A DNA stretch of 64,000 nt from Burkholderiales bacterium (GCA_018969975.1 JAGWXI010000003.1:902-64901), one strand, 5' to 3'; positions 5,231-55,113 are shown, numbered from the stretch's first letter. The notes: generated by a model from the sequence alone, not told the origin. Numbers and translations: made by a program.

Positions 5231-5258
5231 ACCGCGCCAAAGCTCTTTGGCGGTTTGA

Positions 5259-10453: not shown

Positions 10454-13255
10454 TTACAACGAACGGGCAACCTCTTTGATTTCAAAGAACTCCAACACAT
10501 CGCCTTCGACGATATCGTTGTAATTTTTGATGGTCAAGCCGCATTCAAAGTTCTCTTTGACTTCTTTGGCGTCGTCTTTGAAACGCTTCAAGCTGTCGAG
10601 TTCGCCTGTCAAGATAACCACGTTGTTGCGCAATAAGCGCAGCTTTGCGGTGCGACGTACCAAGCCAGAGGTAACCATACAACCCGCGATCGCACCAATT
10701 TTGCTGACCCGCAATACTTGGCGAATTTCTGCAGTGCCGATGATTTCTTCCTTCTTGTCTGGCGTCAACATGCCAGACATGGCAGCTTTGAGTTCGTCTA
10801 CTGCGTCGTAAATGATGTTGTAGTAACGGATTTCGACGTCATTGGTTTCGGCCAACTTGCGTGCACCTGCATCTGCGCGAGTGTTGAATCCAATCACCAC
10901 GGCTTTAGAGGCAATCGCCAAATTCACATCACTCTCACTAATGCCACCCACCGCGGCATATACCAGTTGTATCTTGACCTCGTCGGTTGACAACTTGAGT
11001 AAGGACGCAGCCAAGGCTTCTTGGGAACCCTGTACATCGGCTTTAACGATGATAGGCAGCATCTTGACATCACCGGAGGTCATGTCAGAGAACATGTTCT
11101 CAAGTTTCGATGCTTGTTGTTTAGCCAACTTGGTATTACGCACCTTGCCAGCGCGGTATGTCGCAATTTCACGGGCACGGCGCTCATCGGTCATGACCAT
11201 GAAGTCATCTCCCGCCTGTGGTACTTCAGTCAAGCCTTGGATCTCGACTGGAATAGAAGGGCCAGCTGTTTTGATAGGTTTGCCGTTTTCATCCAACATC
11301 GCTCTGACACGGCCAAATGTTTGACCCGCCAAGACCACGTCGCCCACATTCAAGGTGCCAGATTGCACCAAGACGGTGGCCACAGGTCCACGACCCTTGT
11401 CCAAACGCGCTTCGATCACAAGCCCCTTAGCCATTGCGTCAACAGGCGCTTTGAGTTCCAGCACTTCGGCTTGTAACAAGACTTGTTCAAGCAACCCATC
11501 AATGCCCTCGCCTGTTTTGGCAGAAACCAAGACAAACGGCGAATCGCCACCGAATTCTTCTGGGACCACTTCTTCGCTTACCAATTCACCTTTGACGCGC
11601 TCTGGATTCGCACCGGGTTTATCGATCTTATTGACCGCCACCACGATGGGTACGCCTGCCGCTTTTGCATGTTTAATGGCTTCTTTGGTTTGTGGCATCA
11701 CGCCGTCGTCGGCTGCCACTACCAAGATCACGATGTCCGTCGCTTTAGCACCGCGGGCACGCATGGCGGTAAACGCTTCGTGGCCTGGAGTGTCTAAGAA
11801 AGAAATCATGCCGCGTGGTGTTTCTACGTGGTAAGCGCCGATATGTTGGGTAATACCACCAGCCTCACCAGAAGCCACTTTGGCACGTCGGATGTAGTCG
11901 AGCAAAGATGTTTTACCGTGGTCTACGTGGCCCATGACCGTGACCACAGGAGCACGGGTCACCGCATCCGCATGGTGCACAGAAGCTTCTTCTTCGGTAA
12001 ATGCCTCGGGGTCATCCAAGGCAGCCACGATGGCTTTGTGGCCCATTTCTTCGACCAAAATCATTGCTGTGTCTTGGTCTAAAGGCTGGTTGATGGTGGC
12101 CATTTGGCCAAGCTTCATCAACTGCTTGATGACTTCAGACGCTTTGACAGCCATCTTGTGTGCGAGTTCAGCAACTGTGATGGTTTCAGGAACGTGGACT
12201 TCAATGACACGCGCTTCGACGGGCGCGCTGGACTCATGGATTTCTTCACGGCCTGATCGATCACGTCGTGCGCGGGGACCACTTCGCCAATTGTTGCGCC
12301 CAACACCACCACTGGTGTCACCACGGGTTTTGATTTCTTTCTTCTTGGCTTGTTCGTCTGCCCAGCTGGAGGACAGTTTTGCACTCTTAATTTCTTTATT
12401 GCCGGGTGCAGCGCTTGTACCGGGAGCGGGACGTTCTTTGGCGCTGGTGCTACCAGCAGGTTTGTGCAAAGTACCTTTGATGGGTTTGCCTTCTGCAGGT
12501 GGTGGAACCACTTTTTTGGGAGCAACTTTTTGCGGGGAATTCATCATGCCGCGAATAGCTTCAGCTTCAGCCAAGGCTTTGCGTCTGCGGGTATCGAGAT
12601 CTTTGGCTATTAAAGTGTCCTGTTCGGCACTGATCTGAGCAGCAAGTTTGGCATCCCTGATTGCATCTGCTTGTGCAGTCGCTTGCGCTGTTGCAGAAGT
12701 TTCCTCTACGGAGTTTTCTTCCTTGGCGGGACCTTTTTTAGCTTGAGAGGCTTCAGCTTCAATTGCAGCGGAGGCTTCTTTGGCTTCACGGACGCGGCGT
12801 TTTTCGGCTAGTTCTTCTTCCTGACGCCTTATAAGCTCGGCTTGACGTCTGGCATCATTTTCACGACGAGCCAGTTCATCATGCCCAATCACCGATTGCG
12901 TATTGGGTGCAGTAACTTGCGGCTCAGCAGGAGCGGTATTTTCTGTTTCGTTGTCATCTCGTTTGACAAATACCCGCTTCTTACGAACTTCAACTTGAAT
13001 GGTTCGGGCTTTGCCAGTGGCGTCAGCCTGTTTGATTTCACTCGTCGATTTTTTAACCAACGAGATTTTTTTACGTTCGGTAGTAGCTGTACCGTGGCTG
13101 GTTTGTAAGTGCGTCAAAAGCTTTTGTTTATCTTTTTCGGTTAGTGAGTCACTAGCCGATGATTTAGGTACTCCTGCAGAGACGAGTTGCTCAAGCAGGG
13201 TCTCGGTTGGTTTTTTGAGTTCTTTTGCAAACTCGGCTACTGTCGTAGTGGGCAT
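10454..13255 (-). CDS. infB: Translation initiation factor IF-2
   Basis: [41 protein letters not shown]. Confidence 0.99.
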
Positions 13256-24431: not shown

Positions 24432-25010
24432 ATGTCATTGATCGAAATTCGCAAGCGCTCCCTGTTGATAGAAACTACGCACCACGAAGGGGGCCCTTTG
24501 GTGGATACCCCGTTAAAACTTGCAGCCTCTTGTGCAGTGATACGTAACCCATTTGCTGGACGCTACGAACCAAATTTGATGCCGTTTATGGCCGAATTGC
24601 GTAGCTTAGGTACCTTGCTAGCAAATGAGTTGGTCGACACCTTGGGAAAAGAAAACGTAGAGGTCTACAGCAAGGCTGCAATCGTCGGCATCAATGGCGA
24701 AATGGAACACGGTGCAGTCTGGCATGAAGCCGGGGGGTGGGCCATGCGTTCGGTTCTTGGTGAACCCAAAGCCATGGTACCTGCGGTGAAAGCTGTTGCC
24801 AGTGCCGGATACCGCATGATGGTTCCTGTTCACTATATTCATGCTTCTTATGTACGAAGCCATTTCAACAGCATAGAAATTGGCATTCAAGATGCGCCAC
24901 GTCCCAACGAAATATTGTTTGCATTGGTCATGGGAACAGGTGGGCGCGTGCACTCTCGCTTAGGTGGTTTACTCAAGGAAAAAGTTTCAGTACACGACGG
25001 ACAGCGCTGA
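24432..25010 (+). CDS. DUF1185 (amino acid synthesis family) protein, paralogue A
   Basis: AVIRNPFAGRY, KAAIVG..GEMEH, VRSHF, DAPRPNEI, RLGGL. Confidence 0.85.
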   Translation: MSLIEIRKRSLLIETTHHEGGPLVDTPLKLAASCAVIRNPFAGRYEPNLMPFMAELRSLGTLLANELVDTLGKENVEVYSKAAIVGINGEMEHGAVWHEAGGWAMRSVLGEPKAMVPAVKAVASAGYRMMVPVHYIHASYVRSHFNSIEIGIQDAPRPNEILFALVMGTGGRVHSRLGGLLKEKVSVHDGQR

Positions 25011-25090
25011 GCAGAAAACCCTTGGTTCCCTCTCAGATGTAAAAGTCCCAGCGTTACTGGATATTGCCTATAACCACAAGCATCTTTTAG

Positions 25091-28000
25091 TCAAGGTGCG
25101 CGCAGCCGCGATATAGATTCAGTGAGATTCTGCCAAGCGGGTTGCAGGGGTGCGTAGCGCTCCCGCATCCAAGCTACGATTTCTGCTAATTGCTGGTCGT
25201 TAAGGCTGTTTGCAAATCCCGGCATAAAACCAATCTCACGTGATGCGGGTCGTTGAACGCCTTCCAAAATAACCCGAATCAAATTGTCTGGCCTCTCACT
25301 ATGCAATTTGGAACTGAGCGCCAAGGGATGATTCAAGCCAAGCACTTGCGGACCTTCACCATCGTGGTGGCAACTTGCGCAACTGCCCTCAAACTGTCTT
25401 TGTGCGGAACTTGGTAATGGCGCAAATGCGGCTGCATATTGCACGACCTCCAACGCCTGCGTTGCAAGTTGAGGGGTTTCCTTCACAGGGTTGAGGCTAC
25501 TCAAGTAAACAGCCATAGCACGCAAATCACTCTCTCCCACCGCTTGTAATTCTCTTATGACTTGAGCCATGGGGCCTGCGGCCATGCCATGCTGAGGGCT
25601 GTGGCCTTTACGTAAATATTGGTAAAAGGCCTCTTGTGACCATGGCACAGGGCTTCTATTGAAAGCGTTCAATGCAGGTGCTTCCCAGCCATCAACCAAA
25701 GCACCTTGCATATAAGATGTTCGACTTTTCTCGGCACCTAAGAAACCACGAGGTGTATGACATCCTCCACAGTGCCCCACACCGTTGACTAACTCAGCGC
25801 CTCGATTCCAAGCATCAGACTGATTAGCATCGGGTAAGAACCGCGTCTCGGTGTGAAATATCGCATTCCAAAATCCCATCAAAGGCCGCAAATTAAAAGG
25901 AAAAACAAGTTGCGTTTTCGGCGGTCGCGACGACACCGGGGCTTGCGTCATCAAGTAAGCGTACAAAGCCATCATGTCTTCGTCGCGCATTTGTGCAAAG
26001 GCTGTGTAAGGAAAAGCTGGATACAGCGCATGGCCTTCGCGCGATATTCCTTCGCGCATAGCGCGCTCGAACGCACGAAAAGTCCAACCCCCGATGCCGG
26101 TCTCTTTATCGGGTGTGAGATTGGTGGTGTAAACCGTGCCAAATGGTGTGGTCATCGCACGACCACCTGCATTATGTTGTCCATTTTCTGATGTGTGGCA
26201 ACCAGCACAATTGCCTAATGCAGCGACTTGTTGTCCGCGTGCCAACATACTCGCGCTAAAGGAAGACACTTCCACTCCAGCTACTTTGGGCAGACTACTT
26301 CGCCAACCCAGCAATGCTCCACTAACGGTCAAGACACCCATTGCAAAAGCAGAGATTTGCCCTATTCGTCTTCGCCAATAAGGCTTTTGGGCAGGTTGTT
26401 GCGTAAAGGCAGGTTTCCACTTTTTCCATATTGGGGTCGTTTTGTTCGAACCGGTTGAATTGGTACTTACGCTCGAGTCCCCTAGAGGATGCAAAGCCGC
26501 ACGAACCACCTCTGGCGTAAAGGGCGGGTTTCGAAAGCGAATTCCAGTGGCATCAAAAATAGCGTTTGCAATTGCCGCAGTACCCGGTACAGATGATGAC
26601 TCCCCGGCTCCCAAAGGCACCTCATCTTGTCTCGGCATTTGCATAACTTCAATAACTGGCACCTCACGAAAACTCAAAATTGGATAGCTCCCCCACTCTT
26701 GGCTCACCACACTGCCGTTTATGGGGTTCGTTTGCACTTGTTCTTTTAAAGCACGACTGGTGGTTTGCACCACATTTCCATGGACTTGGTGTTGCACCCC
26801 TTGCGGATTGATCATCAAACCAGCATCGTGTCCCACCACCACTCTTTTTACATGTACCTCACCTGTAAGGCGATGTACTTGCACATCAGCAACCCATGCG
26901 GCCCAAGCTGCGCCAAACCCTGGCCACTTGCTGTGAATGTAACGCGCATAGGCAAAACCCTGTCCTTGAAGCCACTCCCCTTCGCGGGCTTGTTGTTGCG
27001 GTTGAACATGCGACTTCCATTGCGCACGATTAGCAGTGGCTTGCACAAGTTCATGCGCTCGCGGATCTTGCAAGATACGTAAGCGGTATTCGACGGGATC
27101 TACTTTGGCCGCAGTTGCTAACTCATCGATATAGCTTTCATGCGCAAAAGAATTGGGTAGCGCCGACACTCCACGCAACCAAGAAGCACGCAATATAGGT
27201 GGCATATCTTGTACACGCACTCGTAGATTTTTGTAGTCGTAGGGAGGGCGTGCAGTGCGGTCACCCATCTCAAAAGCTCGGGCCAAAGGCTCAATCGTGC
27301 GGGTTAACAGCAATGCCAAAGTGGGTGCACCATTCGACGGGTAGGCTGTTTGAAAGTCGTAGGCGGCAGGCGTGCCGTCGGAATAGATACCCCCCCGCAC
27401 TTGCATCAGTTGCGCAGCGCCTTTGGGCTCCCAAACATGCTCTTGCTCGCGGGTTAACTGCACGCGTACTGGTGCAAGCACAGCGCGAGATAACAAGGCA
27501 GCATCAGCCGTCACATCATCAGCCCCATTTCGGCCGTAACATCCTGCAGCCTCCATGCGAACAACATCTACAGCGGTATCTGCAATACCCATCAAGAGAG
27601 CTAAATCAGCTCGAAGGACGTGCGGATTTTGGCTACCCGACCAGACCCGCAATTGAATCTGTGGCGCTTCAGGGTCACCCTTTTCCATCCAATGTGCAAC
27701 AGCACAGGAAGGCCCTAGGGAGGCATGCATCTGGTAAGGCCAAACATAAGTGCGATCCAGAGTTTTATCCGCGTCTAGCAGGGCCTGGTCAACTTGGCCT
27801 TCATTGACTAACTCGCGCGTGGTACTGGATTGGTTACGTAAGGCTTGCTCAATATCTTCTAACCCGCGAATACCTGGCCAAGACTTCCAGTGAACCTCTA
27901 GTTCAAGCAAAGCTTGCTCTGCATGTTCTTCACGTTGCGCAACTACGCCAACAAAGTCGCGTTGCGTCACAACCGCCAAGATACCTGGAATGTGATGGAT

Positions 28001-28753
28001 GGACGCTGGCTCTACACGCTCCAAGGTGTTTCCAATAAAGTCCCCGCTATCAACCCCCGCATAAGGCGGTCGCACTACTCGACCATGTAGCATTCCCGGT
28101 AATCGCATATCGTGCACAAACGTCGTTTCACCCTTAACTTTGGCTAACAAATCCACCCGTGGCAAATTGGTGCCTATCAAGGTGTAATCCGCAGGAGTCT
28201 TCAGTGTGACGCTGGTATCAAGCATCAGCTGCGTCCGTTGGCCTCGTAACCATTGACTAATGTTTGCAGCTTGCGTGGGGCCTCGCACAACACCATCGAT
28301 CATCTGCAACACTGAAACTTCCAAGGACCAAGCTTTTGCAGCTTGCTGCAGGAGCCAATGCCGAGCTTGCGCACACGCATAACGCAAGGGTTGCGCATGG
28401 ATTTGTAAAGAAGCGCTAGCAATGGTGGCGCCTTGGTTTGGAGCCACTGCGGTATTGCCCATTACCACCCGAACCCGCTCAGGCAAGATATTCAGTTCCT
28501 CTGCTACCACCTGTGTTAAAGCGGTACGCAAACCAGTGCCCAAATCCACATGACCATGAAAAGCCGTAACGCTACCGTCATCCCATAAAGCCAATAAAAA
28601 TTCGAGGCCCTCAGCTGGATTTCCCACCACTAAAGCAGGTTGGCCGGGGCTTGGTGGTGGAGCTGGTGGCGGGTCTCGCGCGATCAGCAAGACACCTTGG
28701 GCGACATGCAAATCGGCGCGGCTAAGCGCGAGTTTTGCTCGTAGGTCACTCAT
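25091..28753 (-). CDS. nicB: Nicotinate dehydrogenase large subunit (NicB-like): xanthine-oxidase-family molybdopterin domain fused to tri-haem cytochrome c
   Basis: GHVDLGTG, GMLHGRVVRPP, PLGAGE, ANAIFDATGIRFR; one hydrophobic helix followed by CAGCH, CGGCH and CASCH; ATG at 28753 overlaps the upstream stop; substrate inferred from context. Confidence 0.82.
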   Translation of the reverse strand: MSDLRAKLALSRADLHVAQGVLLIARDPPPAPPPSPGQPALVVGNPAEGLEFLLALWDDGSVTAFHGHVDLGTGLRTALTQVVAEELNILPERVRVVMGNTAVAPNQGATIASASLQIHAQPLRYACAQARHWLLQQAAKAWSLEVSVLQMIDGVVRGPTQAANISQWLRGQRTQLMLDTSVTLKTPADYTLIGTNLPRVDLLAKVKGETTFVHDMRLPGMLHGRVVRPPYAGVDSGDFIGNTLERVEPASIHHIPGILAVVTQRDFVGVVAQREEHAEQALLELEVHWKSWPGIRGLEDIEQALRNQSSTTRELVNEGQVDQALLDADKTLDRTYVWPYQMHASLGPSCAVAHWMEKGDPEAPQIQLRVWSGSQNPHVLRADLALLMGIADTAVDVVRMEAAGCYGRNGADDVTADAALLSRAVLAPVRVQLTREQEHVWEPKGAAQLMQVRGGIYSDGTPAAYDFQTAYPSNGAPTLALLLTRTIEPLARAFEMGDRTARPPYDYKNLRVRVQDMPPILRASWLRGVSALPNSFAHESYIDELATAAKVDPVEYRLRILQDPRAHELVQATANRAQWKSHVQPQQQAREGEWLQGQGFAYARYIHSKWPGFGAAWAAWVADVQVHRLTGEVHVKRVVVGHDAGLMINPQGVQHQVHGNVVQTTSRALKEQVQTNPINGSVVSQEWGSYPILSFREVPVIEVMQMPRQDEVPLGAGESSSVPGTAAIANAIFDATGIRFRNPPFTPEVVRAALHPLGDSSVSTNSTGSNKTTPIWKKWKPAFTQQPAQKPYWRRRIGQISAFAMGVLTVSGALLGWRSSLPKVAGVEVSSFSASMLARGQQVAALGNCAGCHTSENGQHNAGGRAMTTPFGTVYTTNLTPDKETGIGGWTFRAFERAMREGISREGHALYPAFPYTAFAQMRDEDMMALYAYLMTQAPVSSRPPKTQLVFPFNLRPLMGFWNAIFHTETRFLPDANQSDAWNRGAELVNGVGHCGGCHTPRGFLGAEKSRTSYMQGALVDGWEAPALNAFNRSPVPWSQEAFYQYLRKGHSPQHGMAAGPMAQVIRELQAVGESDLRAMAVYLSSLNPVKETPQLATQALEVVQYAAAFAPLPSSAQRQFEGSCASCHHDGEGPQVLGLNHPLALSSKLHSERPDNLIRVILEGVQRPASREIGFMPGFANSLNDQQLAEIVAWMRERYAPLQPAWQNLTESISRLRAP

Positions 28754-29223
28754 TCCGTAGCGGCCATTAAGGCGCAGGCTCGATTCAACGCATCCATAAT
28801 TTCCAGATGAGCACCGCATCGACAAAGATTTCCAGACATGGCATTTCGAATGTGCGCTTCAGTTGGCTTTGGATTCTTATTGAGCATGGCAACCGCTGTC
28901 ATAACCATGCCGTTTAAGCAGTAACCGCATTGAGCTGCTTGGGCATCAACAAACGCTTGCTGCACAAAATGCAATTTTTTCCCAGTGGCGAGCCCCTCTA
29001 GGGTAGTGATAGATCGGTCTTGCACTTCGCTCGCGGGTATCACACATGCCCGAGCAGCAATTCCGTCAACGAGCACAGTGCATGCACCACACTCGCCTAA
29101 TCCACAGCCGTACTTGGGTCCATTGAGTCCTAAGTCGTTGCGCAAAACATGAAGCAAAGTTGCCTGCTTGGTGAGCGACAAACTATGTGTCTGACCATTG
29201 ACGAACAACTGGACCTGTTTCAT
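28750..29223 (-). CDS. nicA: Nicotinate dehydrogenase small subunit, two [2Fe-2S] clusters (NicA-like)
   Basis: GCGLGECGACTV, QCGYC, NLCRCG; coupled to the large subunit; AGGA precedes ATG 29223. Confidence 0.82.
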   Translation of the reverse strand: MKQVQLFVNGQTHSLSLTKQATLLHVLRNDLGLNGPKYGCGLGECGACTVLVDGIAARACVIPASEVQDRSITTLEGLATGKKLHFVQQAFVDAQAAQCGYCLNGMVMTAVAMLNKNPKPTEAHIRNAMSGNLCRCGAHLEIMDALNRACALMAATE

Positions 29224-29237
29224 CGTTCCTATCAGGT

Positions 29238-29960
29238 TCAAGTTATCTTCAGATCGCTCGACTGGATTCGCTTGACGCCCTTAGTCGCCATATTTTTCCA
29301 TGCAGCGTCAACCGAGCCATTGAGGTCAATCCCGCGACAAGCATCTTCCACCACATAGGTGGTAAAGCCCGCAGTGCGAGCATCTAAGGCGGTCCACGCC
29401 ACGCAAAAGTCTGTCGCCAAACCGACCACAAAAACGGTGTGGATGCCACGTTGTTTGAGATAACCTGCTAGCCCAGTTGCGGTTTTCCTATCTGCCTCCA
29501 TGAAGGCTGAGTAGCTGTCAACATTAGCGTGGTAACCCTTACGTAAAACCAATTGGGCCGTTGGGAGTTTGAGGTCGGGGTGCAGCGCCGCATCGTTGCT
29601 GCCTTGGACGCAATGGTCGGGCCACAGCACCTGCGTGCCGTAGGGCATGTTTGTAGTCTCAAAGGGTTTTTTACCAGCATGGGCACTAGCAAATGAGGCG
29701 TGTCCTTGAGTGTGCCAGTCTTGCGTAACGATGATGTTGGCAAAAGCGGAGGCAATTTTGTTGATCACGGGTACAACCTCTGCCCCTTTAGCAACGGGTA
29801 GGGTTCCACCTTCTACAAAGCAATTCTGCACATCAACTACTATCAATGCGGACTTGTTGCTGGGTTTTATTTTCTCTGCTGAGAGCGCCCAAGGTGCCAT
29901 CGTTCCTAACGCACTCAAAATTCCGATCGAACTAACAAGTTGTCTACGATTTTTTTGCAT
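29238..29960 (-). CDS. pncA: Nicotinamidase/pyrazinamidase with N-terminal twin-arginine-like signal
   Basis: VDVQNCF, QDWH, LWPDHC, RKG...DSYSAF, ATDFCV; N-terminus NRRQLV plus hydrophobic stretch. Confidence 0.92.
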   Translation of the reverse strand: MQKNRRQLVSSIGILSALGTMAPWALSAEKIKPSNKSALIVVDVQNCFVEGGTLPVAKGAEVVPVINKIASAFANIIVTQDWHTQGHASFASAHAGKKPFETTNMPYGTQVLWPDHCVQGSNDAALHPDLKLPTAQLVLRKGYHANVDSYSAFMEADRKTATGLAGYLKQRGIHTVFVVGLATDFCVAWTALDARTAGFTTYVVEDACRGIDLNGSVDAAWKNMATKGVKRIQSSDLKIT

Positions 29961-29995
29961 AGTTTTACCCCTTTTGAAATCATTGAGAAAAAAGA

Positions 29996-30736
29996 CTAAA
30001 CACTTAAGTAATTTCGCTGCACCTCTTCGTCATCTAATAAATCTTGCATCGGAGCCTCATGACGAATTTGACCTTTTTCAAGAATGTAGGCACGGTCTGC
30101 GACCCACTGCGCAAAATGCAAGTTCTGTTCAGACAACAAAATGCTGACGCCTTCAGCCTTGAGTGCCAAGATCATATCGGCCATTTGTTCAACGATAAGC
30201 GGCGCTACGCCTTCGGACGGCTCGTCCAGCAACACTACCAAGGGGTTTGACATCAACGTTCGCGCCACTGTCAGCATTTGTTGCTCTCCGCCACTCATGC
30301 GCCCGCCAGCGCGATCTTGCATCTCGCCAAGGTTGGGAAACAGCTTAAATAATTTTTCATGAGTCCATAAGGGCGCTGGTGTTCCGTCAGGAAACAGTCG
30401 CGCTGGTTGGCGCCCTACTCTCAGGTTTTCTAGAACTGTCAGTTCTCTAAAGATGCGACGATCCTCGGGTACATACCCAAGGCCTTGTCGAGCCACTTGA
30501 TAGGGTTCAGCATGGGAGATATCTCGGTTTAAGAAACTAACCTGTCCACTGCGCTTGGTCATCATGCCCATGATGGCTTTGAGGGTCGTAGATTTACCTG
30601 CACCATTTCGCCCCATCAAGGCCACTACCTCGCCGCGTTGAACCTGAAGGCTCACGTCGAACAGAATATGTGCAGCACCATACCAAGTGTTGAGCTCTTG
30701 GGTCTGAAGCAATGAGTTGGGAGTCATATTCATCAT
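29996..30736 (-). CDS. LIV-type ABC transporter ATPase (LivF-like)
   Basis: GRNGAGKST, MSGGEQQML, LLDEPSEG. Confidence 0.9.
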   Translation of the reverse strand: MMNMTPNSLLQTQELNTWYGAAHILFDVSLQVQRGEVVALMGRNGAGKSTTLKAIMGMMTKRSGQVSFLNRDISHAEPYQVARQGLGYVPEDRRIFRELTVLENLRVGRQPARLFPDGTPAPLWTHEKLFKLFPNLGEMQDRAGGRMSGGEQQMLTVARTLMSNPLVVLLDEPSEGVAPLIVEQMADMILALKAEGVSILLSEQNLHFAQWVADRAYILEKGQIRHEAPMQDLLDDEEVQRNYLSV

Positions 30737-31497
30737 TATTTTTTTTGTTCGAAGGTTTTGCCGCTACCAAAATAGACCTCTTTTACTCTGGGATGATCGC
30801 GGATGTCTTTTGGCAGTCCTTGCGCAATCAATTGGCCCCGCGCCAAAACAATGATTCGATCTGCAAAACCGAAAACTACGTCCATGCTGTGTTCGGTAAA
30901 GAGCACAGCCATACCACTTTGCGTCACCAACTCACGGGTCAGTGCCATCAGTTTGTTACGCTCTGAAGGAGCCATACCTGCCGTAGGTTCGTCCATCAAC
31001 AACAAGCGGGGATGGTTGGCCATTGCTATCGCTAACTCTAATCGTTTGACATCTCCATAAGCGAGTTCGCTACAAGGGCGTTCAGCTTGTTCCACCAAAC
31101 CTACCTGTTCTAGCAAAGCCAGCGCATCCGTTCGACGGTAATGTGTGGCGCGTTGCCACATCGAAAACAAGTGGTTGTCATCAGACAACATAGCCATCTG
31201 TACGTTTTCAACCACTGTCAATGAATAAAAAGTTTCTGCCACTTGGAAGGTTCGACTCACCCCCATTTGCCAAACCTCGCGGGGATGCAGTCCCAGTAAC
31301 GATTTGCCTGCTAGGGTAATTTGACCAATGTCCGGGCGCAGTTGTCCATTTAGCATATTGAAAGTAGTTGACTTACCAGCTCCATTAGGACCAATCAGGG
31401 CTAATAATTCGCCAGCAGCGAGATCAAAACTAATATCGTCTACCGCGAGGTTACCGCCAAAAGATTTGCGAAGGCCTTGTACACAGAGCAAGTTCAT
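30736..31497 (-). CDS. LIV-type ABC transporter ATPase (LivG-like)
   Basis: GPNGAGKST, LAYGDVKRLE, MDEPTAG; start MNLLCV at 31497. Confidence 0.9.
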   Translation of the reverse strand: MNLLCVQGLRKSFGGNLAVDDISFDLAAGELLALIGPNGAGKSTTFNMLNGQLRPDIGQITLAGKSLLGLHPREVWQMGVSRTFQVAETFYSLTVVENVQMAMLSDDNHLFSMWQRATHYRRTDALALLEQVGLVEQAERPCSELAYGDVKRLELAIAMANHPRLLLMDEPTAGMAPSERNKLMALTRELVTQSGMAVLFTEHSMDVVFGFADRIIVLARGQLIAQGLPKDIRDHPRVKEVYFGSGKTFEQKK

Positions 31498-33404
31498 AGG
31501 GCACCACCTTGACGTGCTTTCCGTGAACGCAACCAATCTTGGACAAAGCCTGCTAGTCCTTGTGGGAAAACCATCACTAGCAACAAAATTGTTCCACCCA
31601 AGACTGCTCGCCAGTAGTCAGTACTACGAGCAATCGTATCTTGCAAGGTTGTAAAGGTGATCGCCCCGACCAAAGGACCGACCACAGTTTGGACGCCACC
31701 CAACAACACCATAACTAAGCCATCCACTGATTTGGTGACACCCAAAGCGTCGGGCGAAATACTGCCCTTAGAGAACGCAAACAACGCTCCCGATAAACCT
31801 GCAAATGTCGCAGCCACAACAAATCCAACCCATTGCAGACGTTTGACATGCATGCCAATTGCTTCAGCACGTACCACCGAGTCACGACTAGCACGCAAAG
31901 CGTAACCAAATGGAGCAAACAACATACGACGCAATGCATAAATTCCAAGGATACAAAAACCCAAAGTAAGGTAGTAATAGATACGCTTATTGGCTAGCCA
32001 AGGACTCGGCCATACGCTGGTGAGTCCGTTACTTCCCCCCGTGAAGCTATCCCATTGAAAACAGATCGACCATAATATTTGACCAAACGCTAAAGTCAGC
32101 ATGGCAAGGTAAACACCCGATAAACGAACGCAGAACCAACCGATCAAAGCAGCTGCAATAGCAGTTAGCAATGGCGCAAAAATCAAAGTTAATTCCATAG
32201 GCATTTGAGCGCGCAGAACCAAAAGAGCTGCAATATAAGCGCCCAAGCCAAAGTACGCCGCATGTCCAAAGGAATGCATTCCTGCAGGCCCCATGATGAA
32301 GTGCAAACTGCAGGCAAATAGTGCTGCAGTCAATAAATCGATTGCCAAAACTGTTGTGTACGGTGATTGGGAAGTGAGATGGGGCAAAGCCCAAAGCACC
32401 ACCAAACACAAAATCCAAATACCCCACTGCATTTGACTGACCAATCGCAAAGGTGCTTCCCCTTCCCCTGGATTACGGGGCGTGCTTTGCGGTTTACCCA
32501 TTAAGCCCCATGGACGCAGCATCAATACCAAGGCCATTACCAAAAACTCTGCTACTAATGTAAGTTTTGAAAAGGCAAAACTGGTTCCCCATAATTCCAC
32601 GGTTCCTAAACCCACGCACAAGGCTTTGATTTCAGCAATCAACAATGCCGCAACATAGGCTCCAGGAATCGAACCCATACCACCTACCACCACAACCACA
32701 AATGCGTCGCCGATGGTCAATAAATCTAAACCTAGATTGGCAGGTTCGCGCGGCAATTGCAATGCACCGCCTAGGCCAGCAAGTGCACAGCCCAACGCAA
32801 ACACACCGGTAAATAACCAGTGTTGGTGAATGCCCAAAGCGCCAACCATTTCTCGGTCTTGCGTAGCTGCACGCACCAGGATGCCGAAAAGGGTTCGGTT
32901 CAACAGCAACCACATCAGCCCCAAGACCAAAGGCCCTACTACGATCAATAACAAGTCATAGGTGGGAAAACGACGACCCAAAATATCAATGGCACCAGAA
33001 AAACCCGGCGCGCGCGGGCCTAACAAGTCTTCCGGTCCCCAGATCCATAAAGCGGCATCTTTGATAACCAATACCAAAGCAAAGGTAGCTAATAGTTGAA
33101 ACAACTCAGGCGCACGATAGATGCGTCGTAAAAGTAGCATTTCTATTAACCCGCCCAACAAGCCAGTTATCAAAGCTGCTAATAACAACCAGCACCAAAA
33201 ACTCAGGGCCAATCCGACCGAACGACCAAAATACTCAACCAAGGAGTAGGCAATATAAATACCCAGCATGAAAAACGAGCCATGGGCAAAGTTGACGATA
33301 CGCGTGACCCCAAAGATCAACGACAGTCCAGCGGAGACTAAAAATAAAGAGGACGCACCGGCCAGACCGTTGAGCGCTTGGACCACAAAGCCAGAAAAAT
33401 CCAT
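31494..33404 (-). CDS. Fused LivH-LivM-type ABC permease
   Basis: First half GLSLIFGVTRIVNFAHG; second half SFGHAAYFGLGAY and GVYLAMLTLAF; start MDFSGF at 33404. Confidence 0.88.
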   Translation of the reverse strand: MDFSGFVVQALNGLAGASSLFLVSAGLSLIFGVTRIVNFAHGSFFMLGIYIAYSLVEYFGRSVGLALSFWCWLLLAALITGLLGGLIEMLLLRRIYRAPELFQLLATFALVLVIKDAALWIWGPEDLLGPRAPGFSGAIDILGRRFPTYDLLLIVVGPLVLGLMWLLLNRTLFGILVRAATQDREMVGALGIHQHWLFTGVFALGCALAGLGGALQLPREPANLGLDLLTIGDAFVVVVVGGMGSIPGAYVAALLIAEIKALCVGLGTVELWGTSFAFSKLTLVAEFLVMALVLMLRPWGLMGKPQSTPRNPGEGEAPLRLVSQMQWGIWILCLVVLWALPHLTSQSPYTTVLAIDLLTAALFACSLHFIMGPAGMHSFGHAAYFGLGAYIAALLVLRAQMPMELTLIFAPLLTAIAAALIGWFCVRLSGVYLAMLTLAFGQILWSICFQWDSFTGGSNGLTSVWPSPWLANKRIYYYLTLGFCILGIYALRRMLFAPFGYALRASRDSVVRAEAIGMHVKRLQWVGFVVAATFAGLSGALFAFSKGSISPDALGVTKSVDGLVMVLLGGVQTVVGPLVGAITFTTLQDTIARSTDYWRAVLGGTILLLVMVFPQGLAGFVQDWLRSRKARQGGAL

Positions 33405-33424
33405 GTCATCACAATCAATGAAAA

Positions 33425-33452
33425 TCAGCGTGCTAACGAGAAAGCACGCTGA
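33425..33452 (-). terminator. Stem-loop after the binding-protein gene (partial terminator or mRNA stabiliser)
   Basis: Perfect 10-bp stem TCAGCGTGCT/AGCACGCTGA, followed by TTTTC on the minus strand. Confidence 0.65.
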
Positions 33453-33466
33453 CAAGAAAGATCTGC

Positions 33467-34672
33467 TTAGTCGGCAGCGCGTAGTTTCTTGACTTCTTCG
33501 TTGCTCGGTTGAAAGTTAGCACCGTCAAGGTAGCGATAGTCCACCATCACGCCCTTACCGTTCTCGTTTTTGATGCGTCCAACAAAGGCACCCATTGTGG
33601 ATTGATGGTCTTGGCCACGAAAGGTCACTTTACCAAACGGGCTTGTCAAACTAAGCTCGCGAAAAGCAACAGCTAGTTTTTCAGAGTCAGTGCTGCCAGC
33701 TTTTTTGATGCCAGCGGCCAAAGCCTGGATCATGGTGTAGCCCACTACGGAACCTAAGCGAGGATAGTCATTGAACTTAGCTTGGTAAGCACTTAAAAAA
33801 GCTTTGTGCTCGGGAGTATTAATACCATTCCATGGATAGCCTGTGACGATCCAGCCATTAGGTGTCTCGTCCTTCAAGGGATCCAAGTACTCAGGCTCAC
33901 CCGTGAGCAAACTCACAACTTCGCGTCCTTGGAACAAGCCGCGGGTATTGCCTTCACGTACGAACTTGGTTAAGTCCGCGCCAAAGAGCACGTTGAAGAT
34001 AGCATCGGGCTTTGCATCAGCGAGCGCTTGAGCCACCGCGCCTGCGTCGACTTTACCCAGCGCTGGCGCCTGCTCAGCGACAAACTCCACATCAGGTTGT
34101 GCGGCTTTTAGTAATTGCTTGAAAGTGGCAACGGCAGATTGGCCATATTCGTAGTTGGGATAGACCACTGCCCAGCGCTTTTTCTTAAGCTTGGCTGCTT
34201 CTGGCACCAACATTGCCGATTGCATGTATGTAGAGGCGCGTAATCGGTAGGTGTATTTATTACCCCCTTGCCAAACGATTTTGTCTGTAAGCGGCTCACC
34301 CGCGAGGAAAAAGAATTTCTTTTGTTTAGAGAAATCTGTGACCGCTAAACCAATATGCGAGAGAAAAGTTCCGCTGAGAAGGTCAACTTGTTCACGCGAG
34401 ACCAACTCTTCGGCAGCTCTAACTGCATCGCCAGGATTAGCATTGTCATCACGAATGAAGAGTTGCAGTTTTTTTCCATTTACACCACCGGCGGCGTTAA
34501 TTTCGTCGACCGCTAGATCCATGCCTTTTTTGTAGGGTTCCAAAAAGGCGGGCTGGGCTTTGTAGCTATTGATCTCTCCTATCTTGATGACGCTTTGTGC
34601 AAATACCGGGGCAAGACCAACTGCCAATACAACAGCAACTGCTGTGTGGGTCAGATTACGAAAACTTTTCAT
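33467..34672 (-). CDS. ABC transporter periplasmic binding protein (LivJ/K-like fold; probably nicotinate-related)
   Basis: Signal peptide ending VFA-Q, IKIGEINSY, EINAAGGVNG; ligand inferred from context. Confidence 0.85.
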   Translation of the reverse strand: MKSFRNLTHTAVAVVLAVGLAPVFAQSVIKIGEINSYKAQPAFLEPYKKGMDLAVDEINAAGGVNGKKLQLFIRDDNANPGDAVRAAEELVSREQVDLLSGTFLSHIGLAVTDFSKQKKFFFLAGEPLTDKIVWQGGNKYTYRLRASTYMQSAMLVPEAAKLKKKRWAVVYPNYEYGQSAVATFKQLLKAAQPDVEFVAEQAPALGKVDAGAVAQALADAKPDAIFNVLFGADLTKFVREGNTRGLFQGREVVSLLTGEPEYLDPLKDETPNGWIVTGYPWNGINTPEHKAFLSAYQAKFNDYPRLGSVVGYTMIQALAAGIKKAGSTDSEKLAVAFRELSLTSPFGKVTFRGQDHQSTMGAFVGRIKNENGKGVMVDYRYLDGANFQPSNEEVKKLRAAD

Positions 34673-34716
34673 ACTGGCTCCTTTAATAAATTGAGACTGA
34701 ACTATGCGCCGACCAT

Positions 34717-35301
34717 TCATCGTAAACCATCTTGGCCGACGATTTCTGAGGCTTGCAATCCGCCAATGCGAGGCAAAGGCCGACCGCTATCCGTGACGAC
34801 AACTGCAACCACGATTTCATTGGCCCTTGGTGCATCGCTCACACGCGCTTCCATGGCATCAAAGTGGCTACGTACGAAAGCTGCATCTTTGTGCCCTAAC
34901 GGGACATCAATGATGGTTCCTAATGTGCCGCGTTTTTTAGCTGAAGGAACCAACGCCGCACCATGGCTCACGGCCTTACGTAAAGGCGCGCCTAATTTGG
35001 GATGCAAGATAGCGGCTGCATGCTCTAGTTCGCCATCTTCGCCCACGATGGCAGCTTTGCCGTAACTTTGCGCTTGGTCTGGCGATATTCCCAAGGCCTG
35101 AACACAGCGCTGACCCAACAAACCACCTAACTCTTCACCCATCTCAATCAACACGTCAAGATTAGGGCTGTATTTGCCCGCATAAGGGTTATCAATCACA
35201 GCCATTGCAAGAGCTTGGCGTGTAGGGGGTTCTACGCTTTGCCCACCTTCGGTGTGGGTTTCGTCGATTTGCACAACAATTTTGCGAATTTTGGCTTTCA
35301 T
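34717..35301 (-). CDS. DUF1185 (amino acid synthesis family) protein, paralogue B
   Basis: AVIDNPYAGKY, YGKAAIVGEDGELEH, VRSHFD, DAPRANEI, RIGGL. Confidence 0.87.
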   Translation of the reverse strand: MKAKIRKIVVQIDETHTEGGQSVEPPTRQALAMAVIDNPYAGKYSPNLDVLIEMGEELGGLLGQRCVQALGISPDQAQSYGKAAIVGEDGELEHAAAILHPKLGAPLRKAVSHGAALVPSAKKRGTLGTIIDVPLGHKDAAFVRSHFDAMEARVSDAPRANEIVVAVVVTDSGRPLPRIGGLQASEIVGQDGLR

Positions 35302-35313
35302 GGGTTTTTTCTC

Positions 35314-36213
35314 CTAAACATTTAAGCAGGCTTTAAGCCCAACTATTTCGATTTGCCCTTGGCAATACAACAGGGCAGCAAATATAAGTCCTTGCGTTTG
35401 CAATCCTTGTGCATATTGTTGTCCTCTCTCCAATGCTTGGGCTACAACTTTTGGTGCAAGTACTGGCACATCCACCGTCACCCGACGCGAACCCAAGTCC
35501 GTATCGTCAAGTAATTGATTAGCGGGTTGTCGCACTATGCTTGGATCGTCACAGTTCACAGCATTTGCAATTAAGGTTGCTGCAGCATCTGCCTGTGCTG
35601 CCGTTGCCGCTAAAACAGTAACACTATCTGCAATACCGAATGAGTGACTTCGACCCCGCCAACCGCTAGTAGCAACACCTCGCACAGGCATTTGTGCCTC
35701 GATAAGCAGTTCTCCATCAAGTAGTAACTCGGAGTCAGGATCACGCCCCATGGCCCGCGTGATGTCGCTTACCAAGCCAATTTGTACGGAAGTATCGTTG
35801 GTCAAATAGAGGGCAATATCGCCCCCATTGTTTACCCATGCGCGCTCAATACCAGATCTCTGGTAGGACGATAAAACAGCTTGCGCTACAGCGCCCGCCA
35901 CGGCCGCCATCGACGTAATAAACCCTTCGGGATGTGTCAAAGTAGGTTGTGCTAAGGGCGCACAGGCCTCCCACATACTGCGCGCGATAGTGCCCCGCAT
36001 GGGATTAGACGCACACAAATCAATGGCTCTTCGCAACTGCGCTAACTCTTGCACCAGTTCAGGCAGCATGGTTTGAAACTGCGCCCAAGCGAGTTCGTGC
36101 GCGCTGAGAACGCAATTTGGTTCTCCATCTGCATGTACCGTTAAGTCAATTGGGCCGTGTCGAAAATGCCAACACTGTGGATTGCGGTTGTAACGCTGAG
36201 CTGTCATCAACAT
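35314..36213 (-). CDS. UPF0280 / ApbE-like protein
   Basis: HGPIDL, MAAVAGAVA, NNGGDI, GVATSGWRGRS, ADAAATLIAN; ATG at 36213 overlaps the hnr stop. Confidence 0.85.
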   Translation of the reverse strand: MLMTAQRYNRNPQCWHFRHGPIDLTVHADGEPNCVLSAHELAWAQFQTMLPELVQELAQLRRAIDLCASNPMRGTIARSMWEACAPLAQPTLTHPEGFITSMAAVAGAVAQAVLSSYQRSGIERAWVNNGGDIALYLTNDTSVQIGLVSDITRAMGRDPDSELLLDGELLIEAQMPVRGVATSGWRGRSHSFGIADSVTVLAATAAQADAAATLIANAVNCDDPSIVRQPANQLLDDTDLGSRRVTVDVPVLAPKVVAQALERGQQYAQGLQTQGLIFAALLYCQGQIEIVGLKACLNV

Positions 36214-37805
36214 CAACCCAACATTGGTGGGTTGTCTAACGGCCAAGGACTATCACTGGCAGGAGGCGCCACCCACCGAATCTGCTTAGGCGCGCCATCA
36301 TTGTGCCAAGCGCCGTACTTTAAGCTGTTATCCAAACTGCGTACGTACCCCATATGCCCACCCAACGTTTCGTAGTCAGACAACCGCATGGTGAACTCGA
36401 TCGGTGCAACGATAGCGGGTGTTGGAACTGTGCCAAAACTACCAGGCGGCATGCGCATCACGTCCACCATGATGGTGATTCCACCACCCGGCCAAACATA
36501 AGAAGGTGCTCCGCCACAAGTAACGTTCACTAATGCACGCTTTATTGCATGTGTTAATTGCACAGGGTTGTCTGTGACACCAGCTCGCAAACTCCCACCC
36601 GCACCTCCTAAAAATAATACAGAAACCATCGACGGTTCACAGTTTTCACCAATGCGATCAACCACCCGACGAACACTGGCTGGCATCTCCGCTATTTGCG
36701 GTTGGAGTTGATCGTCGAGTACATACCAAGCAGAATGTTCGCCCGTAGTTGAGGTCATCAATAAGCGAAGCCCAGACCACGCAACAGCACTGTCCCATGG
36801 ATCCAAGATAGCAAGGGGGTCTTGGATATCGGTGCCACCCCATCCTGTGCCCGGATTAGCAACTTGGAAGTAACGCCCCGGTGTTGACTTGCGCCCTTTT
36901 ATACGAATTCCACTGGGCTGCATGTTCAAACAGCGTCCAGCCTGGTGCTCTGACAATACTCCGGTGATGTGGTCATCCACCACCACCACTTCATCGCACA
37001 ACCCTAACCACTGCTGGGCAAAAATGCCAATGGCGGCCGATCCGCAACCAACGCGCATTCTTTGTTCAGTTATCCCGTTGACGATCGGGGGTTGCCCAGC
37101 TTGCAACACGACGTTAGCGCCACCATCGATACTGACTTCCACCGGATGGAGGTTACAAAGGTCTTGCATCATGTTCATGGTGACGCGGCCTTCTTTTTTA
37201 GTACCTCCCGTCAAGTGATGAACACCGCCTAGGCTAAGCATTTGTGAGCCATATTCGGCCGTCGTAACATGCCCCACCACTTCACCATTACACCGCACCG
37301 CTGCTTGTTCAGGTCCAAGGTAGCGGTCAGTGTCGATTTTTACTTTCAAACTGCAATAACTAAAAATACCTTCAGTAACTACCGTCACCATATCGACACC
37401 GCGCGATTGCGAAGCGACTATGAAAGGCGCTGGTTTGTAATCGGGATAGGTTGTGGAAGATCCGATGCCGGTAACAAACATACCCTGGGAATCACTCGGT
37501 TGTTTGTCCTCCACACTTACGCTTAAAGACCCACGCTCCGATAAATCTGAGATCTCACTTGCACAAGTTGAACCTTGTCGTAGCACCACAACTGGGTCGA
37601 TACGAATCAAAATTCCTTTGCGATTGGCATACCGATCACATGCACCTACGCGACCATCAGAGATTTGACACAAGACGGGACAAGCATTGCACTCCACCTT
37701 ATCACCGATCATCTGTTCATTGCGAAGTGCAGATCGCTCCATCCCCCATTGGAGATTCACATCGTCTGAACTAGGCAGGCCGTCACCTTTGATGTGGGTC
37801 GTCAT
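36213..37805 (-). CDS. hnr: 6-hydroxynicotinate reductase-like Fe-S protein
   Basis: N-terminal CNACPVLC...GACDRYAN Cys cluster; TTYPDYKPAPFIV, VTVVTEGIFSYC, EYGSQMLSLGG, VDDHITG, VWPGGGI; divergent from enamidase; ATG 37805 likely start. Confidence 0.85.
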   Translation of the reverse strand: MTTHIKGDGLPSSDDVNLQWGMERSALRNEQMIGDKVECNACPVLCQISDGRVGACDRYANRKGILIRIDPVVVLRQGSTCASEISDLSERGSLSVSVEDKQPSDSQGMFVTGIGSSTTYPDYKPAPFIVASQSRGVDMVTVVTEGIFSYCSLKVKIDTDRYLGPEQAAVRCNGEVVGHVTTAEYGSQMLSLGGVHHLTGGTKKEGRVTMNMMQDLCNLHPVEVSIDGGANVVLQAGQPPIVNGITEQRMRVGCGSAAIGIFAQQWLGLCDEVVVVDDHITGVLSEHQAGRCLNMQPSGIRIKGRKSTPGRYFQVANPGTGWGGTDIQDPLAILDPWDSAVAWSGLRLLMTSTTGEHSAWYVLDDQLQPQIAEMPASVRRVVDRIGENCEPSMVSVLFLGGAGGSLRAGVTDNPVQLTHAIKRALVNVTCGGAPSYVWPGGGITIMVDVMRMPPGSFGTVPTPAIVAPIEFTMRLSDYETLGGHMGYVRSLDNSLKYGAWHNDGAPKQIRWVAPPASDSPWPLDNPPMLG

Positions 37806-37956
37806 GGGATGAGTGGTACCGTGATTAGTTTGTGGAATCACTAATATAACAACTAACGCATAAACCACAGTAGGTGAAATTCCCCTAGAAACCGGCGTGT
37901 CGAGGCATTACGATTTGCATACCCACTCTTAGTTAGCTATACATTGGAGCAAGTAA

Positions 37957-39147
37957 ATGGCCACGGCAACCGTTGAAGAAAAATCTGGAAAAGTTGTAAT
38001 ACGTAATATTGGATTGATGCTTTCTGGGGACATTGACCGTCCCATATTGAATGCCAATACTATCGTTATCCATGATGGGATCATCACCGCAGTCGGACAA
38101 GAAAAAGATTGCGATATTTCACAAGCAAAAACCACCATCGACGTGCGCCAAACATGTATTGCTCCTGGGTTGATAGACAGCCATGTGCATCCCGTATTTG
38201 GTGATTGGACACCTCGCCAAAACCAATTGGGCTGGATTGAGTCGACTATGAATGGTGGCGTCACCACGATGATTTCAGCTGGTGAAGTCCACTTACCTGG
38301 TCGACCCAAAGATATATTGGGCCTCAAGGCATTAGCCATCACAGCACAACGTGCATTTGATAATTTTCGCCCTGGGGGCGTAAAAGTGATTGCTGGTGCG
38401 CCTATCATTGAAAAAGGAATGACGGAACATGACTTCCAAGAACTTGCTGAAGCTGGGGTCATGCTCTTAGGTGAAGTTGGGCTAGGGTCTGTAAAAGCTG
38501 GCTACGAAGCCAAGGAAATGGTATCTTGGGCTCGAAAATATGGCATACAAAGCACCATTCATACAGGTGGGCCGTCCATTCCTGGTTCAGGTTTAATTGA
38601 TAAAGATGTCGTTCTTGAGGCGGATGCTGATGTGATTGGACACATCAATGGCGGTCACACCTCATTACCTGAATCTCACGTGTGTGAACTTTGCGAAAAG
38701 TCCATCAGAGCTATAGAGATCGTGCACAACGGTAACGAACGAGTTGCAATTGCAGCAGCAAAAGCAGCTTTAGAACTCAAGTGTCCGCATCGAGTTATTT
38801 TGGGTACTGATGGACCCGCGGGATCGGGTGTTCAACCATTAGGAATGCTTCGAATGATCGCCTTACTCTCAAGCTTGGCAAATATTCCAGCCGAGTTGGT
38901 TTTTTGTTTTGCAACTGGGAACACTGCGCGAATCCGTCAATTAAATTGTGGACTGATCGAAGTAGGTCGGGCAGCAGACTTTGTGTTTATGGACAGGGCG
39001 CAACATACTGCTGGAAAAACATTGCTTGAGAGCGTCAGTTTGGGCGACATTCCAGGTATTGGTATGGTGATGATTGACGGTTTGATTAGGTGTTTTAGAA
39101 GTCGTAACACCCCACCAGCGACAGAGGTACCCCAAGTAGTTCACTGA
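37957..39147 (+). CDS. ena: Enamidase-like binuclear amidohydrolase
   Basis: PGLIDSHVH, GDWTPRQ, ISAGEVHLPGRP, GEVG, IHTGG, GHINGG, LGTD; adjacent to hnr. Confidence 0.85.
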   Translation: MATATVEEKSGKVVIRNIGLMLSGDIDRPILNANTIVIHDGIITAVGQEKDCDISQAKTTIDVRQTCIAPGLIDSHVHPVFGDWTPRQNQLGWIESTMNGGVTTMISAGEVHLPGRPKDILGLKALAITAQRAFDNFRPGGVKVIAGAPIIEKGMTEHDFQELAEAGVMLLGEVGLGSVKAGYEAKEMVSWARKYGIQSTIHTGGPSIPGSGLIDKDVVLEADADVIGHINGGHTSLPESHVCELCEKSIRAIEIVHNGNERVAIAAAKAALELKCPHRVILGTDGPAGSGVQPLGMLRMIALLSSLANIPAELVFCFATGNTARIRQLNCGLIEVGRAADFVFMDRAQHTAGKTLLESVSLGDIPGIGMVMIDGLIRCFRSRNTPPATEVPQVVH

Positions 39148-42256: not shown

Positions 42257-43042
42257 ATGCGTAAATCCACTGTTCCTGCCGCCCCCAATATCCAAGTCAT
42301 CGAACGTATGTTCACCTTGATTGATGTGTTGGCATCCAAAGAAGAAGCTATATCGCTCAAAGAAATTAGCGAAAAAACAGGCCTTCATCCCTCCACTGCT
42401 CACCGTATCTTGAATGATCTGGGAGTAGGTCGTTTTGTTGATCGCCCTGAGGCCGGAAGCTATCGCTTAGGCATGCGTCTTTTAGAGTTGGGAAATCTTG
42501 TCAAAGGCCGACTTAATGTCCGAGACGTAGCACTGCAACCAATGCGAGAGTTACATAAACTGACACAACAACCCGTTAATCTGAGTATGAGACAAGGGGA
42601 CGAAATTGTCTATGTCGAGCGCGCATTTAGTGAGCGCTCGGGCATGCAAGTTGTTCGTGCAATAGGAGGTAGGGCACCGCTGCACTTAACATCTGTTGGA
42701 AAGCTATTTTTGGCTTTGGATGATCCGCCAAAAATTCGCGCGTATGCAACCCGCACTGGATTAAGCGGACAAACGCGCAACAGCATCACCCAACTCCCCG
42801 TTTTAGAGCGCGAACTTGCTAAAGCGCGGCAAAACGGCGTAGCGCGAGACAATGAAGAATTAGAACTAGGTGTGCGCTGTATGGCCTCTGGTATTTACGA
42901 CGACCAAGGGCAATTGGTGGCGGGTTTGTCTATTTCTTCGCCCGCTGATCGGTTAGACGAATCTTGGCTCTCCAAACTGCAAATGACGACCCAAGAAATT
43001 TCGCGCTCGCTGGGATTTAAGGGCAATCCCAGTCGCTTATAG
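42257..43042 (+). CDS. IclR-family transcriptional regulator
   Basis: HTH GLHPSTAHRIL, PLHLTSVGKLFL, EELELGVRC. Confidence 0.92.
   Translation: MRKSTVPAAPNIQVIERMFTLIDVLASKEEAISLKEISEKTGLHPSTAHRILNDLGVGRFVDRPEAGSYRLGMRLLELGNLVKGRLNVRDVALQPMRELHKLTQQPVNLSMRQGDEIVYVERAFSERSGMQVVRAIGGRAPLHLTSVGKLFLALDDPPKIRAYATRTGLSGQTRNSITQLPVLERELAKARQNGVARDNEELELGVRCMASGIYDDQGQLVAGLSISSPADRLDESWLSKLQMTTQEISRSLGFKGNPSRL

Positions 43043-53095: not shown

Positions 53096-55111
<2,016 letters not shown>

Positions 55112-55113
<2 letters not shown>

Follow-up and report, generated by a model that had tools for sequence, protein, structure and literature searches.

The stretch of DNA analyzed here (64,000 nucleotides of a Burkholderiales bacterium, GCA_018969975.1 JAGWXI010000003.1:902-64901, referred to as the window) carries between positions 24,432 and 39,147 a cluster of twelve genes that is very probably an operon pair for breaking down nicotinamide and nicotinate along the reductive route of the Azorhizobium type. 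The source is a metagenome-assembled genome (MAG) of 2.72 Mb in 167 contigs, 89% complete. In the proposed pathway, a nicotinamidase (PncA) exported through twin-arginine translocation (Tat) would deamidate nicotinamide in the periplasm and release a first ammonia, and the resulting nicotinate would be imported by a LIV-type ABC system. NicAB, a molybdenum (Mo) hydroxylase without FAD, would then hydroxylate nicotinate at C6 with water and send the electrons to c-type hemes and the respiratory chain; a 6-hydroxynicotinate reductase (Hnr) would convert the product, 6-hydroxynicotinate, to 1,4,5,6-tetrahydro-6-oxonicotinate, and an enamidase (Ena) would open the ring to give 2-formylglutarate and a second ammonia. 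Degradation would presumably continue via glutarate, as in Azorhizobium caulinodans, with enzymes that we did not find in the genome of the window. O2 is not required as a substrate at any step, although the hemes do need a terminal acceptor. A preliminary description of this DNA had proposed the release of two ammonia per nicotinamide by an oxygenase-free route, and what is known of the chemistry of these enzymes does imply both features.

The assignment of the reductive branch comes from comparison with Eubacterium barkeri. Over its whole length, Ena matches the enamidase of this organism (2VUN; E 5.5e-106, residues 11-392 on 2-383) and keeps the HxH metal motif, with DSHVHP facing DTHVHV of 2VUN, in support of its predicted conversion of tetrahydro-6-oxonicotinate to 2-formylglutarate and ammonia. 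The locus of E. barkeri VPI 5359 was found through the back-translated 2VUN peptide, after which the genome was searched; the product of its hnr gene, an open reading frame (ORF) of 499 amino acids (aa), is 41% identical to the window Hnr over residues 97-492 (E 3.2e-94), and the N-terminal segment bearing a Cys motif matches in addition. The homology check against E. barkeri Hnr and Ena that had been suggested beforehand was thus positive for both proteins. Sequence searches with Hnr in Pfam, NCBIfam and the PDB gave no match; more than 8000 close homologs exist, many of them named '6-hydroxynicotinate reductase' by NCBI, and an alignment of three Firmicute and nine proteobacterial sequences contains 100+ invariant columns, with S256 (in GCGSA), C254, C389, H279 and H287 among the invariant residues that are candidates for covalent flavin attachment. 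These likenesses support the view that the window protein would be a 6-hydroxynicotinate reductase, in a proteobacterial form.

This form differs visibly from that of E. barkeri. All three Firmicute Hnr sequences start with a 2x[4Fe-4S] ferredoxin domain marked by two CxxCxxCxxxCP motifs, which is present in none of the nine proteobacterial ones, that of the window included; the cysteines common to Firmicute and proteobacterial proteins are C39, C42, C46, C56, C254 and C389. In two relatives (982 aa, P0129; 969 aa, P0140) the Hnr core is fused to a 4Fe-4S ferredoxin and to a Fer4_20 and Pyr_redox_2 module resembling the NAD(P)H module of GltD, and because of these fusions the sequences suggest that the electron donor varies within the family. 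The predicted model of Hnr is confident (pLDDT, the predicted local distance difference test, 84.5, with a core above 90). Searching with the whole model, of more than 400 residues, Foldseek returned no solved relative (best E 0.013, template modeling score below 0.11), and the best match of a VIA-wide search reached Z 3.9 on a sub-barrel of 65 residues.

The entry into the pathway is predicted from domain architecture and from an equivalog match. PncA scores above the cut-off of the NCBI nicotinamidase equivalog and begins with a twin-arginine leader (MQKNRRQLVSS...ALSA), and RR leaders are kept in five in-cluster homologs. This conserved leader suggests that the protein is probably exported and that deamidation probably takes place in the periplasm, followed by uptake of nicotinate through the ABC system; a literature search for periplasmic or Tat-dependent nicotinamidases returned nothing specific. 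The binding protein of the transporter has a Sec-type leader with a hydrophobic stretch at 22-48 and is the probable receptor for nicotinate (or 6-hydroxynicotinate).

NicA is a small subunit with two [2Fe-2S] domains, matching XdhC/CoxS-type small-subunit models with E values of 1e-47 to 1e-36, all under the equivalog cut-offs, and the cluster has no separate gene for an FAD-binding subunit (CoxM/NdhF-like). In NicB, the Mo-cofactor domains are fused via one predicted membrane helix to a tri-heme cytochrome c, with CxxCH motifs at 873, 1019 and 1149 of 1244 aa. Over the last 420 aa it resembles cytochrome subunits from membrane-bound dehydrogenases (tri-heme 8GY3_A, E 1.3e-93), and a hydrophobic 19-mer (821-839), following KKWK...RRR, precedes the three heme motifs. 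We compared this protein with those of two Pseudorhodoferax genomes other than strain A332: both loci, and one further relative locus, have the same helix, and the sole fused NicB of the two genomes, encoded inside hnr/ena clusters, is 64% identical to that of the window. Neither NicA nor NicB has an N-terminal export signal, and the predicted topology places the Mo/FeS part in the cytoplasm and the hemes in the periplasm. According to what Jimenez et al. are said to have described in 2008, NicAB of Pseudomonas putida is also FAD-less, with a [2Fe-2S] small subunit and a Mo subunit fused to c-type cytochromes that feed the respiratory chain. The window NicAB has the same two-subunit FAD-less architecture as that of P. 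putida KT2440, with three c-type heme motifs. In Paraburkholderia xenovorans LB400 there is a second NicB-like stretch (C2:617545-620979), 36% identical over near-full length and interrupted by two in-frame TGA codons, which may represent two genes, a pseudogene or a case of read-through.

The genes of the cluster, from one end to the other, are as follows.

24432-25010, plus strand: DUF1185b (PF06684, E 1.5e-61)
25091-28753, minus strand: nicB, predicted Mo subunit with cytochrome c (MoCoBD_1/2, Cytochrom_C and Cytochrome_CBB3; 1244-aa ORF)
28750-29241, minus strand: nicA, predicted iron-sulfur subunit (Fer2 and Fer2_2)
29238-29960, minus strand: pncA, predicted nicotinamidase (NF008623 at 195.9 bits, above the cut-off of 174)
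29996-30736, minus strand: LivF-like ABC ATPase (ABC_tran / BCA_ABC_TP_C)
30736-31536, minus strand: LivG-like ABC ATPase (ABC_tran / BCA_ABC_TP_C)
31494-33455, minus strand: fused double LIV-type permease (BPD_transp_2 in two stretches, E 1.3e-64)
33467-34720, minus strand: solute-binding protein (Peripla_BP_6, E 2e-68)
34717-35301, minus strand: DUF1185a (PF06684, E 3.9e-72)
35314-36213, minus strand: UPF0280 (NF003322 at 341.6 bits, above the cut-off of 290)
36213-37805, minus strand: hnr, predicted 6-hydroxynicotinate reductase (homologous to the hnr product of E. barkeri)
37806-37956, no strand: divergent control region between hnr and ena, a spacer of 151 bp
37957-39147, plus strand: ena, predicted enamidase (homology to 2VUN)

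ORF and domain searches recovered the twelve genes where the preliminary description had placed them, and the tight coupling that it attributed to the minus-strand run is real: the nicB/nicA and nicA/pncA junctions are overlaps of 4 bases, and the stop of hnr and the start of UPF0280 share the sequence TGATG. The functions it gave to PncA, NicAB, Hnr and Ena are likewise supported by the equivalog score, the domain architecture, the Hnr identity and the 2VUN match. Its two statements of absence hold as well, in that the window contains neither a gene like nicC, nicX, nicD, nicF or nicE nor an evident enzyme for 2-formylglutarate. The genes hnr and ena diverge from the 151-bp spacer, in which a scan for promoter and terminator consensus sequences found no match (overall, it gave fewer matches than shuffled sequences). 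There is no regulator gene inside the window cluster, the nearest being of the IclR type at 42257-43042 (plus strand), 3 kb past ena; in P. xenovorans LB400 a gene of the TetR family (8829-9548 of its locus, minus strand) diverges from hnr.

The arrangement is not a matter of chance, because it is conserved across the 103 Burkholderiales loci, each 20 kb or longer, in which we counted genes. Hnr, UPF0280 and both DUF1185 proteins are encoded in 103 of 103; Ena follows with 102 loci, NicA with 101 and NicB with 97 (some being cut by the end of the locus), while the fused permease is present in 100, the ABC ATPases in 98-99 and an in-cluster pncA in 27. The Pseudorhodoferax loci have the gene order of the window, pncA included, except for the relocated DUF1185b. 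One scan for relatives found 157; a second one, aimed at the alphaproteobacterial (Azorhizobium/Bradyrhizobium) locus, gave a minimum of 583 species-representative genomes, and in both scans the matches listed were all Burkholderiales. Among Burkholderiales of fresh water and soil the cluster is very widespread; in the genus to which the window belongs, the reductase is scattered, occurring in 9 of 24 congeners.

Part of this arrangement extends to clostridia. In E. barkeri a UPF0280 homolog directly follows hnr (11511-12383 of the locus, minus strand), a DUF1185 gene comes directly after ena (3897-4478, minus strand), and ndhF/S/L/M, ena and DUF1185 lie on the same contig as hnr. Between ndhM and ena there is also an ORF of 391 aa (5764-6939, minus strand). 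Another Firmicute locus has ena, hnr, UPF0280 and DUF1185 in one row. The window thus shares with the E. barkeri cluster for nicotinate fermentation (ndhFSLM, hnr, ena, hgd and others) Hnr (41% identity), UPF0280 (31%), Ena (45-50%) and DUF1185 (51%), with hnr linked to UPF0280 and ena to DUF1185 in both. Linkage in E. barkeri and other Firmicutes and in Burkholderiales alike indicates that the hnr-UPF0280-DUF1185-ena module is old and common to several phyla, with only the hydroxylase differing between its clostridial and proteobacterial versions. The clostridial hydroxylase is NdhFSLM, a soluble enzyme of four subunits that has an FAD subunit and lacks a cytochrome. Also, E. barkeri reduces 2-formylglutarate downstream, and a gene for a dehydrogenase of 301 aa adjoins its cluster, whereas the window has no such gene.

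In proteobacteria the combination is already known. The preliminary description had presented the union of NicAB with the Hnr-enamidase branch as a hybrid, and the novelty implied by this is not supported: the same combination is published for A. caulinodans ORS571 (AZC_2790-2804), Bradyrhizobium japonicum USDA110, Rhodopseudomonas palustris HaA2 and Bradyrhizobiaceae strain SG-6C (Shettigar et al. 2012, PMC3511419). A passage of that paper citing Alhapel 2006 attributes to A. caulinodans and other proteobacteria a cluster that covers the first three steps and also encodes an ABC transporter plus a pair of conserved proteins of unknown role. In A. caulinodans, tetrahydro-6-oxonicotinate is taken on via glutarate, and strain SG-6C grows on nicotinate and on 6-hydroxynicotinate (PMC3511419). 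The window would encode the same set (hydroxylase, Hnr, enamidase, ABC transporter and a pair of conserved proteins), all of it contiguous; the likeness, which extends to an aerobic host and a route via tetrahydro-6-oxonicotinate, is to the published description of those loci. The pathway and the cluster are thus known, and the window is a further member with minor variations, namely an in-cluster pncA with a Tat leader and the second DUF1185 gene at the other end of the cluster. Pseudorhodoferax A332 deleted for nicAB no longer produces 6-hydroxynicotinate, and its growth on nicotinate and on nicotinamide is impaired (PMC13510662, Science Advances, 2026). The early extracellular 6-hydroxynicotinate of this strain may reflect a slow Hnr step.

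The roles of the two conserved companions of the pathway can be approached through remote homology. UPF0280, which passes NF003322, directly follows hnr in 103 of the 103 Burkholderiales loci and in E. barkeri. Aligned to ApbE by hhalign, it gives a probability of 96.5% (E 9.9e-10, 98 columns) over the core GGDI / ATSG / SVTV..ADAxAT, and in a PDB profile search 6NXJ (E 0.12, same motifs) is the first match outside the UPF0280-like 2O34. On these profile matches, UPF0280 is a remote homolog of the ApbE flavin transferases. It shares with the ApbE/Ftp FAD:protein FMN transferases the core motifs GGxI, (A)TSG and SVTV...AD..(A/S)T, but lacks the insert TSGDY...H..IDP; it has neither a signal peptide nor a lipobox, and its target would be cytoplasmic. 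A search of the whole genome (89% complete) with PF02424 finds no canonical ApbE. Alhapel is said to have described, in 2006, a covalently bound flavin in the Hnr of E. barkeri, and because of this and of the universal adjacency of the two genes, our best guess is that UPF0280 is an ApbE-like flavin transferase that matures Hnr by flavin attachment, a role that we propose tentatively and that falls somewhat short of an even chance. The predicted complex of Hnr and UPF0280 scored 0.00, which counts neither for nor against an interaction.

DUF1185a is 51% identical to the product of the gene directly after E. barkeri ena and close to SPO0826 (PDB 2QTP, E 6.2e-86, 67-70% identity), whose JCSG paper describes a hexamer with a fold like that of Bacillus chorismate mutase and does not mention nicotinate (PMC2954203). 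DUF1185b is a diverged paralog (41% identical to DUF1185a); the two paralogs are adjacent and come after UPF0280 in 96 of the 103 related loci, and in the window lineage DUF1185b has been relocated to the opposite end of the cluster. Foldseek with the DUF1185a model returned DUF1185 entries only. In the VIA-wide search with the DUF1185 fold, the first neighbor outside the family is the Rid protein 9BK9 (Z 7.1, root-mean-square deviation 3.2, 117 aligned), a weak signal, followed by several Rid/YjgF rows at Z 4-6 and by chorismate mutase 1FNK at Z 4.6. That DUF1185 is a helper with a Rid/chorismate-mutase fold, acting at the enamine/imine or at the 2-formylglutarate stage, is a guess that we make with considerable doubt. 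A role as 2-formylglutarate decarboxylase is unlikely, since E. barkeri, in which the carboxyl group stays in place, has kept the gene. Taken together, UPF0280 could be a cytoplasmic, minimal ApbE-type transferase installing the covalent flavin of Hnr, DUF1185 a Rid-like protein finishing or protecting the step from enamine/imine to 2-formylglutarate, and the donor of the aerobic Hnr, which would have lost its 2x[4Fe-4S] domain, something other than clostridial ferredoxin; as a whole we consider this combination speculative and rather unlikely to be right in every part.

Several points weigh against the Azorhizobium-type reading and against the roles proposed within it. Every function is assigned by homology. 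The proteobacterial Hnr is without the 2x[4Fe-4S] domain of the characterized enzyme, and the cluster contains no gene for an electron donor to it. In the predicted topology of NicB, the Mo/FeS part and the hemes are on opposite sides of the membrane, and no known mechanism explains the path of the electrons; moreover, NicB is likened to its P. putida counterpart by architecture. UPF0280 fails the Pfam ApbE model PF02424 (no match at E <= 0.001), and the resemblance of DUF1185 to Rid proteins reaches only Z 7.1. Finally, no enzyme of the glutarate route was identified in the genome, 89% complete, in a search that stopped at three of 15 acyl-CoA dehydrogenases: CsiD is absent, NCBIfam singles out no GcdH among eight acyl-CoA dehydrogenases of the genome, and of the three compared with the PDB none is GcdH-like and one is ACAD11-like.

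This last gap bears directly on an alternative in which the first four steps are the same and the route serves mainly to harvest two ammonia per nicotinamide, with 2-formylglutarate not passing through glutaryl-CoA and being instead excreted or used by unrecognized enzymes. It would agree with the lack of a 2-formylglutarate-consuming enzyme in the window, with the missing CsiD and the three dehydrogenases unlike GcdH, and with the small genome (2.7 Mb) of a freshwater bacterium in whose genus the trait is patchy. Still, those three are a small part of the 15 acyl-CoA dehydrogenases of an incomplete MAG, the genome has eight family-III CoA-transferases, and related bacteria that possess this cluster can live on nicotinate as their only source of carbon (PMC3511419; PMC13510662). 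We therefore regard this alternative as serious but unlikely.

Far less probable is that the Mo hydroxylase and its cluster act on another N-heterocycle, such as picolinate, isonicotinate or a substituted pyridine carboxylate. Many different heterocycles are known as substrates in this family of Mo hydroxylases, neither NicA nor NicB attains a substrate-specific equivalog model, and the likeness of NicB to that of P. putida is one of architecture. Against this, the gene translationally coupled to nicA encodes a nicotinamidase equivalog, which yields nicotinate, and Hnr and Ena are orthologous to enzymes specific to the 6-hydroxynicotinate branch. The A332 deletion argues in the same direction, as it stops the formation of 6-hydroxynicotinate (PMC13510662), the two other Pseudorhodoferax genomes having a single fused NicB, 64% identical to that of the window.

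Least probable of all is that 6-hydroxynicotinate is degraded by the oxygenolytic route of P. putida KT2440, through 2,5-dihydroxypyridine and maleamate (NicC, NicX, NicD, NicF and NicE), with these genes elsewhere in the genome and Hnr and Ena serving something else: the MAG is incomplete (89%, 167 contigs) and PMC13510662 uses the P. putida pathway to illustrate root isolates that carry nicAB, Pseudorhodoferax A332 among them, but no Peptidase_M29 (PF02073, NicX-type, taken as detector of NicX with control genomes that did not include P. putida) occurs in the genome of the window, in the two Pseudorhodoferax genomes or in P. xenovorans LB400, and in Burkholderiales loci linkage of hnr and ena to nicAB is invariable.

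Outside the cluster, the remainder of the window consists of housekeeping genes (nusA-infB-truB, leuA, ilvBC, aat/ate, nadE, moaA/moeA and an Orn/Lys/Arg decarboxylase). The Mo-cofactor genes at 59114-62162 (plus strand) comprise moaA (radical SAM and Mob_synth_C), a MobA-like NTP transferase and moeA and lie about 20 kb from the nicB cluster, and nadE at 53449-55113 (minus strand) encodes a glutamine-dependent NAD synthase. At 4322-6404, a family-III CoA-transferase (302 aa, plus strand) adjoins an ECH_2 enoyl-CoA hydratase/hydrolase (381 aa, minus strand); together with an AMP-binding ligase at 2369-4006 (minus strand), this pair has no visible tie to the cluster.

To the pathway itself the window adds little, the Azorhizobium-type route and its gene cluster having been in the literature since 1989-2012 and the reductase being already named by annotation pipelines. 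What the present analysis does contribute is the linkage of hnr with UPF0280 and of ena with DUF1185 in E. barkeri itself, the homology between UPF0280 and ApbE, a proteobacterial Hnr without the 2x[4Fe-4S] domain, and the conserved Tat leader of the in-cluster PncA. The remaining interest lies in two conserved genes without an assigned role, in a reductase without solved or modeled relatives and in the unexplained electron path of NicB, all of them testable in cultivable relatives. In Pseudorhodoferax, the cluster probably underlies growth on nicotinate and nicotinamide, as well as the release of 6-hydroxynicotinate that has been linked to plant immunity.

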